From the IMG/VR virus record IMGVR_UViG_3300045988_183620: 64,000 bases of DNA, one strand, 5' to 3'. This DNA is from a virus. Below the pieces are notes generated by a model. That model had not been told where the DNA came from and searched no databases. It saw only the letters and a list, made by a program, of their open reading frames with translations. Positions within the stretch are counted from its first letter, which is position 1; each line of letters begins with the position of its first letter. This document shows positions 3,744 through 12,322 of the stretch, piece by piece. The position numbers and the translations under genes are program-made.

Positions 3744-3828
3744 TGGCGCTTGTGGTAGGATTCGAACCTACGAGCAGTTTCCTACTTCCGGTTTTCTGGA
3801 CCGGCTCTTTCAGCCTCTCGGACACACA
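3744..3828 (-). tRNA. tRNA, type II (Ser-like), anticodon loop CCAGAAA (anticodon AGA with C33?)
   Basis: Reverse complement shows acceptor GCTTGTG/CACAAGC, D-loop GAGAGGCTGAA, T-arm GTAGG-TTCGAAT-CCTAC, CCA encoded, long variable arm. Position 33 is C. Confidence 0.6.
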
Positions 3829-3834
3829 AGCAAA

Positions 3835-3922
3835 TGGCGCAGAGGGTGAGGCTCGAACTCACATGCCGCTTTCGCGACGGCAGCTTAGCAAGCTGCTGCA
3901 CTACCTATTGTGCGACCACTGC
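3835..3922 (-). tRNA. tRNA-Ser(GCU), type II
   Basis: Anticodon arm GCAGC-TTGCTAA-GCTGC, long variable arm, T-arm GTGAG-TTCGAGC-CTCAC, CCA encoded. One T-T acceptor mismatch. Confidence 0.7.
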
Positions 3923-3985
3923 ATAAAAAGCACCCACATTTTTCTTGAATATCAATTATGTACGTAAGATAACGTAGGTGCGCGT

Positions 3986-4062
3986 TGGTGACCTGCGCGG
4001 GGATTGAACCCGCAACCTTCAGCTTGAGAGGCTGATGACTTAACCTATTCGTCGAGCAGGCC
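3986..4062 (-). tRNA. tRNA-Glu(CUC)
   Basis: Anticodon arm TCAGC-CTCTCAA-GCTGA, T-arm GCGGG-TTCAATC-CCCGC, CCA encoded. Confidence 0.7.
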
Positions 4063-4065
4063 TTA

Positions 4066-4150
4066 TGGTGTGTCGGACTGGATTCGAACCAGTGAACCGT
4101 AACGGAGCGGTTTTACAGACCGTTTGCTTTAACCTCTTGTATACCGACAC
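4066..4150 (-). tRNA. tRNA-Tyr(GUA), type II
   Basis: Anticodon loop CTGTAAA, T-arm CTGG-TTCGAAT-CCAG, perfect 7-bp acceptor, long variable arm. Confidence 0.75.
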
Positions 4151-4173
4151 ATAGAATGAGGCATTAAGCCTCG

Positions 4174-4249
4174 TGGTGCTCCCGGCTGGAGTCGAACCAG
4201 CTGCACGCGGCTCTTCAGACCGCTGCTCTACCAGTTGAGCTACAGAAGC
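4174..4249 (-). tRNA. tRNA-Phe(GAA)
   Basis: 5' GCTTCTGTAGCTCAACTGGTAGAGC, anticodon loop CTGAAGA, T-arm CTGG-TTCGACT-CCAG. Confidence 0.8.
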
Positions 4250-4250
4250 A

Positions 4251-4327
4251 TGGGGACCCGTGAGGAATTCGAATCCTCAACCTTCTCCGTGAAAGGGAGA
4301 TGACTTAACCAATTCGTCGAACGGGCC
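4251..4327 (-). tRNA. tRNA-Glu(UUC)
   Basis: Anticodon arm TCTCC-CTTTCAC-GGAGA; same architecture as the 3986-4062 tRNA. Confidence 0.75.
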
Positions 4328-4355
4328 ATGTTATGCCGTATCATGCGGCGAGGAA

Positions 4356-4577
4356 TTATGCGATAACGAGAATATCGTCGATTTTCACATCCAGTATGGA
4401 GGCTAAAATCACAAGGTTATCAATGGTGGGAAGAGCCGCACCAGCCTGCCATTTGGCAACTGCTTGTGTAGATACACCGAGGGTATCTGCTATGTCTTTA
4501 ACCTTGATGCCAGCCGCTTTGCGGAGTGTTTTAATGTTGGCACCAGTTTGCTGGATGTCGATAGTGGGAATTGTCAT
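4356..4577 (-). CDS. XRE/Cro-like HTH transcriptional regulator embedded in the tRNA array
   Basis: 73 aa; IKTLRKAAGIKVKDIADTLGVSTQAVAKWQ is a typical HTH_3 pattern. Confidence 0.7.
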   Translation of the reverse strand: MTIPTIDIQQTGANIKTLRKAAGIKVKDIADTLGVSTQAVAKWQAGAALPTIDNLVILASILDVKIDDILVIA

Positions 4578-4876
4578 TTGTATGCTGCCTTTCTTTATAC
4601 AGGCAACAAAAAAGCTGCCTGCCGAAATCTCGACAAGCAGCTATGACATGCAGTTATCGTTTAGAAGACGCACCGCATCTGCGCACTGACTGTGTTAGCC
4701 TGTCGAGGAGTATGGGAAATAAAACTGCGTTCATAAGAGCTGAACTCAGATTCATAACTATACTCGGCAAACGACATGGCATTGACAGTATTGCACAGCA
4801 TATTGGGTGTCTCCTTTCTCGTTTCGTTCTGATTCTATTATAGCACGTTTGCATTGAAACGCAATCAACTTGTGGT

Positions 4877-5059
4877 TTACTTTTTGCTGCACCACTTGGC
4901 GGTATCGGGAATGTATACAGCATCCACTCCCTCTTGCTTTGGGCTGGAAGGATTTTCCTTGGTTCCTGGCGGAGATGTCCTGCGTGCCGCCTTGAATTTG
5001 CTGCGGTAGCCTGCACCTTCATACAGCACACGTTCTGAGCCGAGTAATTTGTCGTTCAT
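4877..5059 (-). CDS. hypothetical small protein
   Basis: 60-aa ORF between the tRNA blocks; no recognisable domain. Confidence 0.25.
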   Translation of the reverse strand: MNDKLLGSERVLYEGAGYRSKFKAARRTSPPGTKENPSSPKQEGVDAVYIPDTAKWCSKK

Positions 5060-5117
5060 GGTATACTCCTTTCAAAAACAATGATGAGCATGCACCTTTT
5101 GAGTACATACTCACCGT

Positions 5118-5193
5118 TGGCAGGGGTAACACGACTCGAACATGCAACACGCGGTTTTGGAGACCGCTGCTCTACCACTTGAGCTATACCCCT
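5118..5193 (-). tRNA. tRNA-Trp(CCA)
   Basis: Anticodon arm GCGGT-CTCCAAA-ACCGC, perfect acceptor AGGGGTA/TACCCCT, T-loop TTCGAGT. Confidence 0.8.
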
Positions 5194-10335: not shown

Positions 10336-10400
10336 CGTTGCCCGTCGTCCGCCCCGTGGAGGCCATCTTTATGGACGACTGACGGAGTTTTGCTCCGTCC
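10336..10400. repeat. conserved-loop hairpin element, copy A (core ccccgtggaggc); about 110-nt extended homology with copy B
   Basis: gcgttgcccg...gccccgtggaggccatctttatg followed by a hairpin tggacgACTGACggag/ctccgtcca and ccgcagccgctttcgccacacgg. Confidence 0.5.
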
Positions 10401-10600
10401 ATACCGCAGCCGCTTTCGCCACACGGTATGATTATTACGGCTTGCTTGCGCATCCTGTTCTACCGGCGTGTCCGCCGTAGCGCGGCAAGATGAACAATGC
10501 TCGTGGTGTAGTTTTACCCGAAAAAGGAGATTCGGAAATCCGCGCTTATGCAACCTCACGAAAATCATTGGATAGAGAATATTAGCCGCAAAAGGTCTTG

Positions 10601-10670
10601 CGTTGCCCGCCATCTGCCCCGTGGAGGCTATTCTCGTTGATGACTGACGAGGGTGGTGTTCCTCGTCAAT
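10601..10670. repeat. conserved-loop hairpin element, copy B
   Basis: cgttgcccgccatctgccccgtggaggctattctcgttgatgactgacgagg...cctcgtcaatgccgcagccggtttcgccactcgg. Confidence 0.5.
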
Positions 10671-10869
10671 GCCGCAGCCGGTTTCGCCACTCGGCACTGC
10701 ATTTTTCCGGCTTGACGATGCCCTGTGTAAATCGCTTGTCCAAGCGGCGCGGACAAGGCATTCGTCTTCGTGGTCATAGTTAAGGAGTTCCGCGCAAATG
10801 ACCGTACTGCGAATCAACAACAGTACAATGCACGCCCAGAGACAGCCGCAGGAAGCGGCATGTTGCTGG

Positions 10870-10945
10870 TGGTGGAAATAGAGGGATTCGAACCCTCGAC
10901 CCCCTGCTTGCAAAGCAGGTGCTCTCCCAGCTGAGCTATATCCCC
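10870..10945 (-). tRNA. tRNA-Ala(UGC)
   Basis: Anticodon arm CCTGC-TTTGCAA-GCAGG, T-arm GAGGG-TTCGAAT-CCCTC; acceptor with G-U pairs. Confidence 0.75.
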
Positions 10946-10975
10946 ATGATGGCGGGGCATCCCCGCCGGACAGTT

Positions 10976-11368
10976 TTAGGTGTACTGGAAGTCGCCGTAC
11001 TGCTTGACCTCGCGCTCCAGGTGGAGCGGAATGGTCTTGGTGCTTCGCTGCGTGATGTCGCTACGTGCCACCAGAGTCTCGCTTACGCCTGCCGCCTGAA
11101 GAACTTCAAACAGATTGGACGGTCCTGTACCAGCATAGCCCGCCGTCAGTCCGTTGACACGCATTGTAAACCCATGCAGATGCGGTGCCAGGCCAGAAAT
11201 GAAATCGAGTTCAACAATGACCTCGTCACTCTTATCGTTCACACGTTTGACTGAGATAGCACGGATGTTCTGGCTTCCGAAGGTCTCAATCAGTTTCTTG
11301 GCTGCCGCTGCGGTTTCAATCGTGGATGTACCTTCTACATTGATAATTGCCTGCTCCATTGGAATCAT
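10976..11368 (-). CDS. hypothetical protein embedded between tRNAs
   Basis: 130-aa ORF whose composition is not tRNA-derived (GYAGTGPSNLFEVLQAAG). Confidence 0.45.
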   Translation of the reverse strand: MIPMEQAIINVEGTSTIETAAAAKKLIETFGSQNIRAISVKRVNDKSDEVIVELDFISGLAPHLHGFTMRVNGLTAGYAGTGPSNLFEVLQAAGVSETLVARSDITQRSTKTIPLHLEREVKQYGDFQYT

Positions 11369-11560
11369 CTCCTTTCTACTTCAAGTTGTCATGCACTGTG
11401 GCAGATAACGCTCTGCCCTGCGAGGCTTTACGTTGCCTATTCGTGTTCGGTTCCGGTGCCGACGACTTCCGGCAGGACTTAGCCAACCGCCAACAGGTGC
11501 ATGCCCCCGTTGGAAGCTTCTTGGGCGGTTTCTCAATGAGCGCGTCGCCCAATCGGACCG

Positions 11561-11636
11561 TGGAGCTTAGTGGCAGATTCGAACTGCCCGCCTGCACATT
11601 ACGAGTGTGCCGCTCTGCCTAATGAGCTAACCAAGC
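11561..11636 (-). tRNA. tRNA-Thr(CGU)
   Basis: Anticodon arm GCACA-CTCGTAA-TGTGC, T-arm GGCAG-TTCGAAT-CTGCC. Confidence 0.75.
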
Positions 11637-11639
11637 ATG

Positions 11640-12010
11640 GCAGGATGTTTTATGCTTGTTATCATCCCAAATCAGGGCAGCCAACCCCGCATCAAGCACC
11701 ATTCGGCAGCCACGCCGACGGATTCTGTATTGTACCCTCTCCGCCGTTTTCCGGTCTCATTCGCGACTGATACCGGGACTCTCGGATACTATCAGGCACA
11801 GCACCTGTTTGCCGATTCTTTTTGAGGCTGTCCATTGGCATTCGACAGCGGACCACAAGTGGACCATGCTCGCTTTATTTAGTGTCGTGCGTACGGTGAC
11901 AGCGACGGTGGAGCGGGCAGCGGGATTCATTTCTATTCACGCCACCCATGTGGGCAGCGACAATTGCTATACCCCGCGTGGTGGGTCGCGTCTGGCTTTC
12001 GCTTTTGCGG
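11640..12010 (-). ncRNA. candidate structured non-coding RNA segment
   Basis: About 370 bp that is GC-rich and hairpin-dense (cgcgtggtgggtcgcg, ggaccacaagtggacc). It carries only short mutually overlapping ORFs on both strands and lies between a tRNA and a small gene. Confidence 0.25.
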
Positions 12011-12013
12011 CCT

Positions 12014-12208
12014 TTATTTTGCTTCGCTGTTTATGTACCCAAACCAGCAGCTTTCGCAGCCAGCGAACCCCGCGCACCCTTCCTCGTACACGTCATTCCA
12101 TGGCGGACATCTGAAATTCTTTTCAAAGACTTTTACCATGTTCTTTTTGATATCTTCCACGGGTTCGCTGAACTTCATTCCTTTTGTCAATTCTTCAAAA
12201 ACCGTCAT
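12014..12208 (-). CDS. small Cys-rich protein
   Basis: 64 aa with GAAGGAAGGAAAG ribosome-binding site then AAAAATG; motif CPPW...CAGFAGCESCW. Confidence 0.5.
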   Translation of the reverse strand: MTVFEELTKGMKFSEPVEDIKKNMVKVFEKNFRCPPWNDVYEEGCAGFAGCESCWFGYINSEAK

Positions 12209-12214
12209 TTTTCT

Positions 12215-12245
12215 TTCCTTCCTTCTCGCCGCGTGGAGGCTACCA
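12215..12245. repeat. conserved-loop hairpin element, copy C (abuts the tRNA 3' end)
   Basis: ttcct-tctcgccgcgtggaggctaccagcgt-aggaa. Confidence 0.45.
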
Positions 12246-12247
12246 GC

Positions 12248-12322
12248 GTAGGAATATTGGAGGAGTATATCGGGGTCGAACCGACGTTATCTGCTTGGAG
12301 GGCAGAGGTATTAACCGTTATA
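12248..12322 (-). tRNA. tRNA-Gly(UCC)-like with C33 (loop CCTCCAA)
   Basis: D-arm GTAT-AACGGTTA-ATAC, anticodon stem TCTGC/GCAGA, T-arm GTCGG-TTCGACC-CCGAT, CCA encoded. Confidence 0.6.

Follow-up and report, generated by a model that had tools for sequence, protein, structure and literature searches.

Three tRNA genes of a large uncultivated gut phage carry C in place of U at position 33, and three others have leucine anticodons without a long variable arm. The genes, their C33 register, conservation, stem covariation and recurrence in unrelated phages are seen directly; judged from this conservation, both groups appear to be conserved, working designs.

The tRNA array and its C33 genes

The window, the whole stretch of 64,000 nucleotides analysed here (IMG/VR record IMGVR_UViG_3300045988_183620), contains 22 tRNA genes by ARAGORN prediction, all on the minus strand between 3744 and 14265 (Table 1). 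All 22 match Rfam family RF00005 with 45–72 bits, above the gathering score of 29. The discriminators are G73 in the Ser and Asn tRNAs, U73 in Gly and A73 in all four Leu tRNAs. The two tRNA clusters are bracketed by promoter-like and terminator-like sites, and the order of the dispersed upstream tRNAs is syntenic across 71 related loci. These relatives come from viral contigs of IMG/VR, and several proteins match PHROG families, with no cellular context around the window tRNAs; the phage host is probably a member of the gut Bacillota.

Table 1. Features of the tRNA array (window coordinates).
Feature	Position	Strand	Characteristics	Bits
Terminator-like hairpin	3720–3741	-	9 bp, 6 GC, T run; 3 nt past tRNA-Ser(AGA), cluster B end
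Ser(AGA)	3744–3831	-	final gene of cluster B; class II; loop CCAGAAA, C33, A34, G73; CCA encoded	45.0
Cluster B remainder	3835–4327	-	all U33; ARAGORN, RF00005
Ser(GCU)	3835–3922	-	cluster B, U33
Glu(CUC)	3986–4062	-	cluster B, U33
Tyr(GUA)	4066–4150	-	cluster B, U33
Phe(GAA)	4174–4249	-	cluster B, U33
Glu(UUC)	4251–4327	-	cluster B, U33
Terminator-like hairpin	5083–5115	-	T run; directly after tRNA-Trp, cluster A end
Cluster A, whole	5118–5920	-	Gln, Lys, Asn-C33, four Leu genes, Trp
Trp(CCA)	5118–5193	-	cluster A
Leu(UAA)	5201–5275	-	variable region 6 nt; loop UUUAAGU; A73; CCA not encoded	49.0
Leu(CAG)	5305–5391	-	ordinary class II; 15-nt variable arm; A73	50.3
Leu(AAG)	5397–5476	-	variable region 8 nt; A34; Leu-type D arm; A73; CCA encoded	59.6
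Leu(CAA)	5505–5581	-	class I-like; variable region 6 nt; Leu-type D arm; G1·U72; A73; CCA encoded	50.3
Asn(GUU), extra copy	5585–5660	-	loop CCGUUAA, C33, G73; CCA encoded	63.2
Lys(UUU)	5692–5767	-	cluster A
Gln(UUG)	5847–5920	-	cluster A
Promoter-like TTGACT-17-TATAAT	6256–6284	-	11/12 matches; upstream of cluster A; consensus match only
Dispersed upstream tRNAs	10213–14265	-	8 genes, including canonical Asn and Gly-C33
Ser(UGA)	10213–10301	-	dispersed upstream
Ala(UGC)	10870–10945	-	dispersed upstream
Thr(CGU)	11561–11636	-	dispersed upstream
Gly(UCC)	12258–12332	-	loop CCUCCAA, C33, U73; CCA encoded	54.6
Asp(GUC)	13498–13574	-	dispersed upstream
Met(CAU)	13609–13683	-	dispersed upstream
Asn(GUU), canonical copy	13944–14019	-	loop CUGUUAA	72
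Thr(UGU)	14190–14265	-	dispersed upstream

Alignment to RF00005 places C at position 33 in Ser(AGA), one Asn(GUU) copy and Gly(UCC), in agreement with the original prediction and with the loops it gave; the other 19 window tRNAs have U33. In each of the three the anticodon arm has its standard form, a 5-bp stem closed by a 7-nt loop, and the posterior probability is '*' across the arm, and the covariance-model alignments yielded no other stem register that would place U at position 33. The boundaries proposed earlier were correct for Asn, but the Ser(AGA) gene ends at 3831 rather than 3828 and the Gly gene occupies 12258–12332 rather than 12248–12322; the earlier record gave no strand. The canonical Asn(GUU) copy was found where expected. 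The two Asn copies are only 82% identical and the Gly(UCC)-C33 gene is the sole Gly tRNA of the window, so the Asn and Gly genes are not recent U33C derivatives.

Conservation and recurrence of C33

To place these genes in a family we used the 71 related IMG/VR loci, which were anchored on proteins, with tRNA sequence playing no part in their selection. The Ser(AGA) loop CCAGAAA was present in all 44 copies from these loci and the window, and C33 persists throughout approximately 27 distinct sequences belonging to several body lineages. Across 18 distinct relatives this loop was invariant and 98% of stem cells were paired, with changes on both sides of 16 of the 25 pairs, a count reached in none of 500 shuffles. 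The Asn alignment was similar (99.3% paired, 14/21 compensatory pairs), and C33 paralogues of Asn are kept in approximately 20 distinct sequences. C33 also occurred in family copies of Met(CAU) (44/55), Glu(UUC) (14/45), Gly(UCC) (7/52) and Asn (6/60), and in a wider locus set in Asn (83/102) and Gly (20/22), several of these counts being inflated by many near-identical contigs from a single human-gut dataset. The Gly loop CCUCCAA was found on four different stem backgrounds, one of them in an unrelated phage.

These observations bear on the suggestion that some of the genes are pseudogenes or non-translating decoys, that is, tRNA-like RNAs merely absorbing a nuclease. The window Leu(UAA) allele, with two stem mismatches and no CCA, would fit this description, as would the 6-nt loops on tRNAs of a few sister loci, and overexpressed viral tRNAs have been suggested as possible inhibitors of the AriB nuclease (PMC12409363). 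We nevertheless consider it very unlikely: 98–99% of stem cells are paired with abundant compensatory changes, anticodons are strictly conserved, T-loop and D-loop are intact and discriminators fit, CCA is encoded in 21 of the 22 window genes and the array's only Gly tRNA has C33. Both the C33 and the short-arm designs are shared by many related and a few unrelated phages and are therefore not errors or dead genes.

As a background, 14 of 589 tRNAs (2.4%) from 115 randomly hit IMG/VR loci had C33, compared with 3/22 in the window (Fisher p = 0.02) and 115/744 in the family (p = 1e-17, for copies that are not independent); the family share is 15–21%. The background cases likewise fall mainly on Gly(UCC), Ile(GAU), Asn(GUU) and Met(CAU). 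No C33 was found among the ARAGORN-predicted tRNAs of phage T5. Contig 3300028591_000087, which has no proteins in common with the window, carries identical CCUCCAA and CCUUCAA loops, and a genome-collection scan queried with the Ser(AGA) pattern located CCAGAAA in two MAG contigs, one from Faecousia and one alphaproteobacterial.

Near-neutral relaxed constraint, under which C33 would function much like U33 in this translation system and rapidly evolving, recombining tRNA genes would drift between the two pyrimidines with no defence advantage, is a possible though rather unlikely explanation of this distribution. Position 33 shows only U and C in the family and accounts for ~7 of ~760 minimum-spanning-tree events (2/147 on short edges), approximately the per-site mean, and this event count revealed no substitution hotspot there. 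In addition, tRNA genes are swapped between lineages like cassettes, and the cost of C33 is low in yeast (PMC13492127). Among close relatives, Glu(UUC), Gly(UCC) and Met(CAU) each occur as both U33 and C33 alleles that differ by 1–2 nt; whereas the window Glu(UUC) has U33, the same position in 97%-identical relatives holds a different, C33 allele. Such coexistence is also expected from near-neutral drift. However, Ser(AGA) never reverts among its unbiased copies, identical loops on the same small set of isoacceptors appear again in unrelated phages, and neither the excess of C33 in the family over the background nor its absence from T5 favours drift. U33 is moreover almost invariant in bacterial tRNAs (PMC13276492, PMC1635277), and position 33 is therefore not neutral in cells. 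Purifying selection, as judged from this conservation, appears to maintain the C33 variants, which makes an adaptive role reasonable.

Short-arm leucine tRNAs

The variable regions of Leu(AAG) and Leu(CAA) are short, as originally predicted, and that of Leu(UAA) is short as well. The peculiarities noted earlier for Leu(UAA), namely its loop, a U31·C39 stem mismatch and the missing CCA, were all seen in the covariance alignment, together with a second mismatch, A6·C67, and a 3' end reading GCA followed by tct. The missing CCA is ordinary: many sister-phage orthologues of this gene also lack it, and in Bacillota tRNA genes often do without an encoded CCA. A better-paired Leu(UAA) allele is present in the related loci L001 and L060. 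Among 14 distinct relatives of Leu(CAA), 98.2% of stem cells were paired, 15 of 20 pairs were compensatory and G1·U72 was invariant. A73 and the Leu-type D arm (A14, A15, G18G19) are conserved in the short-arm genes.

Bacterial LeuRS, as characterised in E. coli, needs A73 and the D/T-loop architecture rather than a long arm and also ignores the anticodon (PMC9976931). Because of these requirements, the simplest reading of the "Leu-like type I" species is that they are real tRNALeu, and their sequences predict that they are probably leucylated. Class I tRNALeu are found in animal mitochondria and have been engineered in E. coli by removing the variable arm (Larkin 2002 and Asahara, as cited in PMC9976931). 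The phage species share with these the Leu anticodon, A73 and the lack of a long arm, and we take their leucylation to have the same basis, the discriminator and D/T-loop architecture. In contrast to them, they are natural genes of bacterial phages, reside in the same operon as the class II tRNALeu(CAG), and frequently have G1·U72, a pair not described as an identity element for Leu.

It is quite improbable that decoding or identity is altered instead, with the short-arm species carrying an amino acid other than leucine, or with C33 and A34 together shifting wobble towards subtle recoding or bias. A34 tRNAs such as Ser(AGA) and Leu(AAG), both present here, are atypical in bacteria, and G1·U72 is unusual, occurring in 21 of 34 distinct short Leu-anticodon tRNAs as compared with ~5% of other tRNAs. 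Long arms of Leu and Ser tRNAs have also been described as universal except in animal mitochondria (PMC9976931). Against altered identity stand the conserved A73 and D arm and the indifference of LeuRS to both anticodon and arm (PMC9976931), and the features that would attract AlaRS or SerRS, G3·U70 or a G73 together with a long arm, are absent from the genes. Against altered decoding, code 11 gives normal ORFs in the window, each of the three stop codons is in use, and codon usage is unremarkable.

Possible roles of the variant tRNAs

We tentatively propose, at somewhat below an even chance, that the three C33 and three short-arm Leu tRNAs are functional elongators of a phage-private set that host enzymes handle differently; that they are expressed, charged and used in decoding, and what selects for them, are the parts that we infer. 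C33 would be a heritable design tolerated by the ribosome, and the tRNAs bearing it would still decode UCU, AAY and GGA/GGG. The naturally C33-containing yeast tRNALeu(GAG) has minimal functional cost, and C33 is thus compatible with translation (PMC13492127). The substitution would change the single loop nucleotide on which host enzymes can otherwise depend, so that those reading the loop, whether anticodon nucleases of defence or toxin systems, modification enzymes or both, may treat these tRNAs differently. One example is tRNA-guanine transglycosylase: the E. coli enzyme requires UGU in the loop (Nakanishi 1994, as cited in PMC1635277), and C33 tRNA-Asn would remain queuosine-free because U33-G34-U35 is needed. 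The short-arm tRNALeu would be leucylated by the host LeuRS, with A73 and the D/T-loop architecture as its cues, and in the long arm they likewise lack a feature by which host factors could recognise them.

A structural benefit, in which C33 prevents a cross-loop U33·A37 Watson-Crick pair and leaves the unmodified loop of massively transcribed phage tRNAs open and decoding-competent without host t6A/i6A37, seems improbable. A37 is present in every C33 loop of our set (CCAGAAA, CCGUUAA, CCUCCAA, CCUUCAA/C, CCCAUAC and UCGCUAA) and in all background C33 cases; several C33 isoacceptors (Asn, Ile, Met and Ser(GCU)) are t6A substrates, and t6A37 is held to stop U33-A37 intraloop pairing (PMC13602947). 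The association is weak, however, because A37 is the majority state of all tRNAs, and most ANN-reading tRNAs of the same arrays (Lys, Thr and canonical Asn) stay U33.

Under the phage-private elongator proposal, evasion of anticodon nucleases by the C33 variants, raised in the original prediction, is plausible. Its premise, that phage tRNAs evade such nucleases through anticodon-arm changes, is published: mycobacteriophage C1 against VapC/MazF, T5 tRNALys/Thr/Asn against PARIS AriB and T5 tRNATyr against retron PtuAB (PMC10264068, PMC11464382, PMC12409363, PMC11555353). Like these tRNAs, the window genes form a phage-encoded array of otherwise well-formed tRNAs with single-nucleotide loop departures, including a variant second isoacceptor copy (Asn) beside the canonical one. 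The base altered here is instead the near-universal U33, a change reported by none of those studies; the T5 tRNAs all have U33 and T5 Leu is class II. AriB reads U36-A-A-U39 and cleaves at 40/41, not position 33 (PMC12409363). Colicin E5 and zymocin γ-toxin, the two nucleases tried with U33C substrates, cut them as wild type and neither was blocked (PMC1635277, PMC2275089); no characterised nuclease is known to be resisted via U33C.

C33 also occurs naturally in the cytoplasmic initiator tRNAs of eukaryotes. The phage tRNAs resemble yeast tRNALeu(GAG), in which C replaces U33 with translation function retained (PMC13492127). Unlike the eukaryotic examples, which are single cellular genes, they comprise several elongator isoacceptors in a viral, bacterial-type system and recur across lineages.

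A SpoT-type HD hydrolase is encoded inside the tRNA array, and the window also encodes an RlaP RNA-repair nucleotidyltransferase. HDV-like ribozymes are located 5–7 nt upstream of a tRNA in the window and its relatives. This placement, and the lack of a suppressor tRNA or recoding, distinguish them from Theta ribozymes, which lie beside gut-phage tRNAs and for which a role in processing tRNA 3' trailers has been described (PMC10879173). They share with Theta ribozymes the HDV-like fold, matches to RF02682, gut Caudoviricetes as carriers and adjacency to tRNAs.

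Layout of the tRNA array and its C33 genes

ARAGORN identified 22 tRNA genes in the whole window, all on the minus strand between 3744 and 14265, and every one of them matches Rfam RF00005 at 45-72 bits (gathering score 29) and has a tRNA cloverleaf. The genes fall into two clusters and a dispersed group (Table), the latter interspersed with small ORFs and a 961-aa ORF. The ORFs of the window follow code 11 with all three stop codons in use, and we detected neither an alternative genetic code nor suppressor tRNAs in the window. Its proteins match PHROG families and the remainder of the window is phage-like, with the closest protein matches to Bacillota and human-faecal phages; a Y-family polymerase, a UvrD-like helicase, an AAA ATPase and a sortase are also encoded. 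Megablast of the array against GenBank phages returned only 48-nt tRNA-Trp matches, and tblastn with the 942-aa helicase gave no match, pointing to no close GenBank phage.

Coordinates of the features of the window
Feature	Coordinates	Strand	Remarks
Asn(GUU) C33	5585-5660	-	GCGGG-CCGUUAA-CCCGU, covariance-model alignment
Ser(AGA) C33	3744-3831	-	CCGGU-CCAGAAA-ACCGG, covariance-model alignment
Gly(UCC) C33	12258-12332	-	UCUGC-CCUCCAA-GCAGA, covariance-model alignment
Dispersed tRNAs	14265-10213	-	Thr, Asn, Met, Asp, Gly, Thr, Ala, Ser
Cluster A	5920-5118	-	Gln, Lys, Asn, four Leu, Trp
Cluster B	4327-3744	-	Glu, Phe, Tyr, Glu, Ser, Ser
Promoter-like site	6284-6256	-	11/12 consensus match, upstream of cluster A
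Terminator-like hairpin and T run	10205-10189	-	after tRNA-Ser(UGA)
Terminator-like hairpin and T run	5115-5083	-	after tRNA-Trp
Terminator-like hairpin and T run	3741-3720	-	after tRNA-Ser(AGA)
HDV-like ribozyme (RF02682)	10306-10379	-	
HDV-like ribozyme (RF02682)	10573-10644	-	
HDV-like ribozyme (RF02682)	52713-52784	-	third copy, after SPFH/flotillin gene
466-aa HD protein	655-2055	-	just downstream of tRNA array
SpoT/RelA-type HD hydrolase	9428-10255	-	Pfam HD_4, phrog_990 E = 5e-50; within tRNA array
Sortase	25175-25948	-	
RlaP "RNA repair pathway" Pol-beta nucleotidyltransferase	32608-33615	-	
CAP12/Pycsar-type TIR-domain protein	38736-39398	-	
SPFH/flotillin protein	52822-54663	-	
YpsA SLOG protein	56865-57389	-	

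The original prediction that three tRNAs carry C at position 33 (C33) in place of the near-universal U was borne out by covariance-model alignments. The Asn(GUU), Ser(AGA) and Gly(UCC) genes each combine a normal anticodon stem of 5 bp with a loop of 7 nt, at maximal posterior probabilities, and the remaining 19/22 genes have the canonical U33. No alternative stem register would restore U33 in any of the three genes. The predicted location was correct for Asn, lay 10 nt too low for Gly and ended 3 nt short for Ser, with the strand omitted. The canonical Asn(GUU) copy is also present as proposed (13944-14019, loop CUGUUAA) and represents the closest paralogue of the C33 Asn gene; because the two share only 82% identity, the C33 copy is a long-standing paralogue and did not arise by a recent point mutation. 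The C33 loops depart from the canonical loop and are unlike those of the window's own paralogue and of sister-phage orthologues.

Ser(AGA) (3744-3831) and Leu(AAG) (5397-5476) of the window carry A34 without being Arg(ACG), as do Pro(AGG) and Leu(AAG) of an unrelated large phage (IMG/VR loci L206/L210). The bodies of Ser(AGA) A34 tRNAs form about 8 lineages with C33 versus about 15 with U33. Met(CAU) (13609-13683, minus strand) shows the C1·A72 mismatch and the A11:U24 pair characteristic of bacterial initiators; it does not have the three initiator anticodon-stem G-C pairs and features A32 (in the window) and U73. Initiator, elongator Met and Ile2 are its candidate identities. Its sister-clade orthologues (L005 and others) have the loop CCCAUAC, with C33.

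Conservation among related phages

Using the 961-aa array protein as an IMG/VR query, which imposes no selection on tRNA sequence, we identified 71 related loci, four at 97% identity and the others at about 56%, over which the tRNA order is syntenic. These relatives are viral contigs of up to 171 kb, which identifies the C33 tRNAs as phage-encoded. Among the 744 tRNAs of this family, window included, position 33 is occupied by U or C and by no other base. C33 is present in 44/44 Ser(AGA), 44/55 Met(CAU), 14/45 Glu(UUC), 7/52 Gly(UCC) and 6/60 Asn(GUU) genes. Near-neutral relaxation of constraint at position 33 is a possible, if doubtful, explanation of C33, but it fits poorly with the absolute fixation of C33 in Ser(AGA) and with the recurrence of the same loops.

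The stems of these tRNAs show compensatory substitution among homologues. In Ser(AGA), where the loop CCAGAAA is unchanged in 18 distinct sequences, 98.0% of stem cells are paired and 16/25 pairs have changed on both sides. The short-arm Leu(CAA) is found family-wide, with 98.2% pairing, 15/20 compensatory pairs and invariant G1·U72 and A73, and the Asn set, in which C33 and U33 forms were pooled, is 99.3% paired with 14/21 compensatory pairs. Slid controls reached 29-54% pairing over the three alignments (29-44% for Ser(AGA)), and 0/500 shuffles of each alignment equalled the observed value. It had been suggested that some of the variants might be pseudo-tRNAs; this is contradicted by the covariation and by anticodons and loops that are invariant within orthologue groups, and we observed no pattern of disrupted stems, lost conservation or drifting anticodons. 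We reject pseudogene status and give a pseudogene or decoy origin a very small chance; the alignments indicate that the C33 and short-arm tRNAs are working genes under selection.

Judging from sequence comparison, the tRNA array is a recombination mosaic. In keeping with cassette exchange, most tRNAs differ by 0-4 nt from those of the 97%-identical relatives (L001-L004, L060), with 19-42 nt differences in Thr(UGU) (14190-14265) and in Glu(UUC) and Glu(CUC) (3986-4327). Glu(UUC) is represented by a U33 allele in the window versus a C33 allele in the 97%-identical relatives.

Other unusual RNAs occur in the related arrays. A Ser(UGA) orthologue (L018, L026, L040, L068) has lost G35, giving the 6-nt anticodon loop CUUAAA, and a Gly/Ala-like tRNA with U73 and the 6-nt loop CGCAAA is kept in 20 loci (L075 and 19 others). 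The expanded tRNA array of one sister locus (L014) contains a full-length tmRNA gene (14737-15136; RF00023, 84.6 bits).

C33 outside the family

C33 is not unique to the window phage. In a background of 589 tRNAs from 115 loci matched by a generic D-arm motif, position 33 is U in 96.3% and C in 2.4%, the C33 loops being Gly CCUCCAA, Ile CCGAUAA, Asn CCGUUAA and Met CCCAUAA. The rate in the window (3/22) exceeds this background (p = 0.02) and that of the family lies far above it. A pattern combining the CCAGAAA arm with the T arm was found in at least 119 IMG/VR loci, mostly of the window's gut-phage family, and its CUAGAAA version in 19 diverse loci. Across 185,579 GTDB species genomes the C33 Ser(AGA) pattern occurred in only two MAG contigs, from Faecousia and an alphaproteobacterium, neither of which has proteins in common with the window. 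The genome scan for a host thus returned only these two unrelated contigs, and the Faecousia match is a weak hint at best.

The unrelated 193-kb contig 3300028591_000087 (L206/L210) independently encodes Gly CCUCCAA and Glu CCUUCAA loops together with a 76-nt Leu(UAG). Phage T5, a model of tRNA-based defence evasion, differs from the window phage in having no C33 tRNA; its Leu tRNA is class II. The huge-phage sequence LR756511, which matched the Leu block, was discarded as a lead, as all its Leu tRNAs are normal class II with U33. We rated the C33 array as a variant of the phage tRNA arrays that have non-host anticodon arms.

Short-arm tRNALeu and the gene lacking CCA

The two type-I tRNAs with Leu anticodons (AAG, CAA) of the original prediction were confirmed, and Leu(UAA) is a third among the four Leu genes. 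The variable regions of Leu(CAA) (6 nt), Leu(AAG) (8 nt) and Leu(UAA) (6 nt) fall below the class II long arm of at least 10 nt with a stem, and Leu(CAG) has a normal region of 15 nt. All four retain A73 and a Leu-type D arm (A14, A15, G18G19), and A73 is unchanged in 14 distinct Leu(CAA) sequences. Animal mitochondria are described as the sole exception to a long arm in Leu and Ser tRNAs, and E. coli LeuRS can do without this arm but requires A73 and tertiary contacts of the D/T loops (PMC9976931). By analogy with this enzyme, which is indifferent to both arm and anticodon (PMC9976931), we infer that the short-arm tRNAs would be charged by LeuRS. We consider it very unlikely that the variant tRNAs have an altered identity or decoding.

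G1·U72 is present in 21/34 distinct short Leu tRNAs versus about 5% of other tRNAs, and 15/50 Leu-anticodon tRNAs in the background sample of random viral contigs are no longer than 80 nt. Short Leu-anticodon tRNAs seem to constitute a broad and apparently undescribed class of phage tRNA. Many of those in L213-L332 (random IMG/VR loci), L199, L202, L206, L207, L210, L226, L229, L311 and other loci combine G1·U72 with A73, and the D arm of the short viral forms is Leu-type in some and generic class I in others. The C33 loops and short Leu arms are real, conserved and convergent. In the literature that could be searched, neither conserved C33 nor short-arm G1·U72 tRNALeu is described for phages, which does not prove that no such description exists.

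The tRNA at 5201-5275 has, as first described, the loop UUUAAGU, no CCA and a mismatched anticodon stem (U31·C39), to which an A6·C67 mismatch is added. This slightly degraded Leu(UAA) allele is the only one with two mismatches, and L001/L060 have an allele of the same loop type whose stems pair well. The missing CCA, originally regarded as an oddity, turned out to be ordinary: Leu(UAA) orthologues are also without CCA, and Thr(UGU) and Glu(CUC) of sister phages usually are. The CCA-adding enzyme of a Bacillota host would add CCA to such tRNAs.

Possible selection by host enzymes

U33 is regarded as invariant in bacteria and is tied to the U-turn (PMC13276492, PMC1635277), yet yeast tRNALeu(GAG) bears C33 at almost no cost (PMC13492127). 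We give somewhat less than an even chance to the proposal that the ribosome tolerates the C33 and short-arm edits, which would alter recognition of the tRNA by host enzymes that read the loop. More tentatively, and rather unlikely in our estimate, a widespread lineage of large gut phages and, by convergence, several unrelated large phages would possess private tRNA sets built on two rule-breaking designs that serve as general escape motifs: short-arm tRNALeu with A73 and G1·U72, and C33 loops, which are fixed in Ser-AGA and recur in Asn-GUU, Gly-UCC, Glu-UUC, Met-CAU and Ile-GAU. These motifs would preserve charging and decoding and drop U33 and the long arm as invariant handles used by host anticodon nucleases or by enzymes modifying the wobble position or position 37.

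Nuclease evasion, raised in the original prediction, is plausible by analogy with phage tRNAs whose altered anticodon arms let them evade VapC, PARIS and retron effectors (PMC10264068, PMC12409363, PMC11555353). Substantial evidence speaks against altered recognition. Cutting by colicin E5 and γ-toxin is normal on U33C substrates, so that the change gives no protection from these two nucleases (PMC1635277, PMC2275089), and PARIS AriB reads positions 36-41, which counts against evasion via position 33 (PMC12409363). Nor is position 33 a hotspot of diversifying selection, since its event counts in the family are about average, again counting against evasion. As E. coli TGT requires a UGU loop sequence, according to the work cited in PMC1635277, the C33 Asn tRNA should escape queuosine insertion. 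A specific role of C33 as a queuosine block was rejected, as it would apply to Asn alone, the other C33 tRNAs having U34, C34 or A34. Evasion of bacterial Schlafen nucleases by short Leu arms, by analogy with SLFN11 and type II tRNAs, was likewise rejected, as the relevant paper reports Lys/Met anticodon-arm cuts and no type II preference. C33 might instead block a U33·A37 cross-loop pair in under-modified tRNAs, an idea based on PMC13602947; A37 is present in all C33 loops, and we nevertheless regard this explanation as improbable.

Textbooks count U33 and the long variable arm of tRNALeu among the near-invariants of bacterial-type translation. More than 100 related phage genomes depart from both in genes demonstrably under purifying selection, and unrelated phages show these departures again. 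If a host defence or modification enzyme is the selecting agent, C33 and short-arm Leu tRNAs would be simple sequence markers of tRNA-centred phage-host conflict in the gut and would provide concrete substrates in the search for the nucleases involved. If the changes are neutral, the strictness of the "universal" U33 and long arm needs resetting. Either way, tRNA annotation pipelines that penalise C33 or short Leu arms will under-call or mislabel many phage tRNAs.

HDV-like ribozymes and other genes

Two of the HDV-like ribozymes form tandem modules between tRNA-Ala and tRNA-Ser(UGA), scoring 45.3 and 36.3 bits, the second under the gathering score (E = 4e-5). A structured element of about 55 nt, similar in the two modules and comprising a stem and a 7-bp hairpin (z = -4.6 and -3.0), precedes each ribozyme. 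A ribozyme that ends 5-7 nt upstream of a tRNA, either tRNA-Ser(UGA) or tRNA-Asn, is present in the window and six relatives (L002, L005, L007, L010, L014, L060). This placement is on the opposite side of the tRNA from that of theta ribozymes, which lie directly downstream and process tRNA 3' trailers.

The SpoT/RelA-type HD hydrolase probably starts inside its listed ORF, whose start overlaps tRNA-Ser(UGA). Toxins of the alarmone or tRNA 3'-pyrophosphorylation type can be reversed by small alarmone hydrolases; on this analogy, the hydrolase may be another tRNA-related counter-defence.

The 466-aa protein carries an HD domain at its C terminus; in the alignment its central region, where Y-R-G, S and E-x-E are invariant, resembles the R-S-ExE motif of ADP-ribosyltransferases. 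Its AlphaFold model (pLDDT 91.5) gave weak fold matches (E ~0.1) to PDE/HD domains and Xenorhabdus Rhs ART toxins, and its 154 homologues are all unnamed or "HD domain-containing". Our tests gave no support for a CCA-adding activity that could account for the gene lacking CCA, as the protein has no PolyA_pol, NTase or PDB sequence match. Clusters A and B are separated by a 73-aa ORF (4356-4577, minus strand) and two other small ORFs; judged by eye, the 73-aa product has the look of an XRE-type helix-turn-helix protein.
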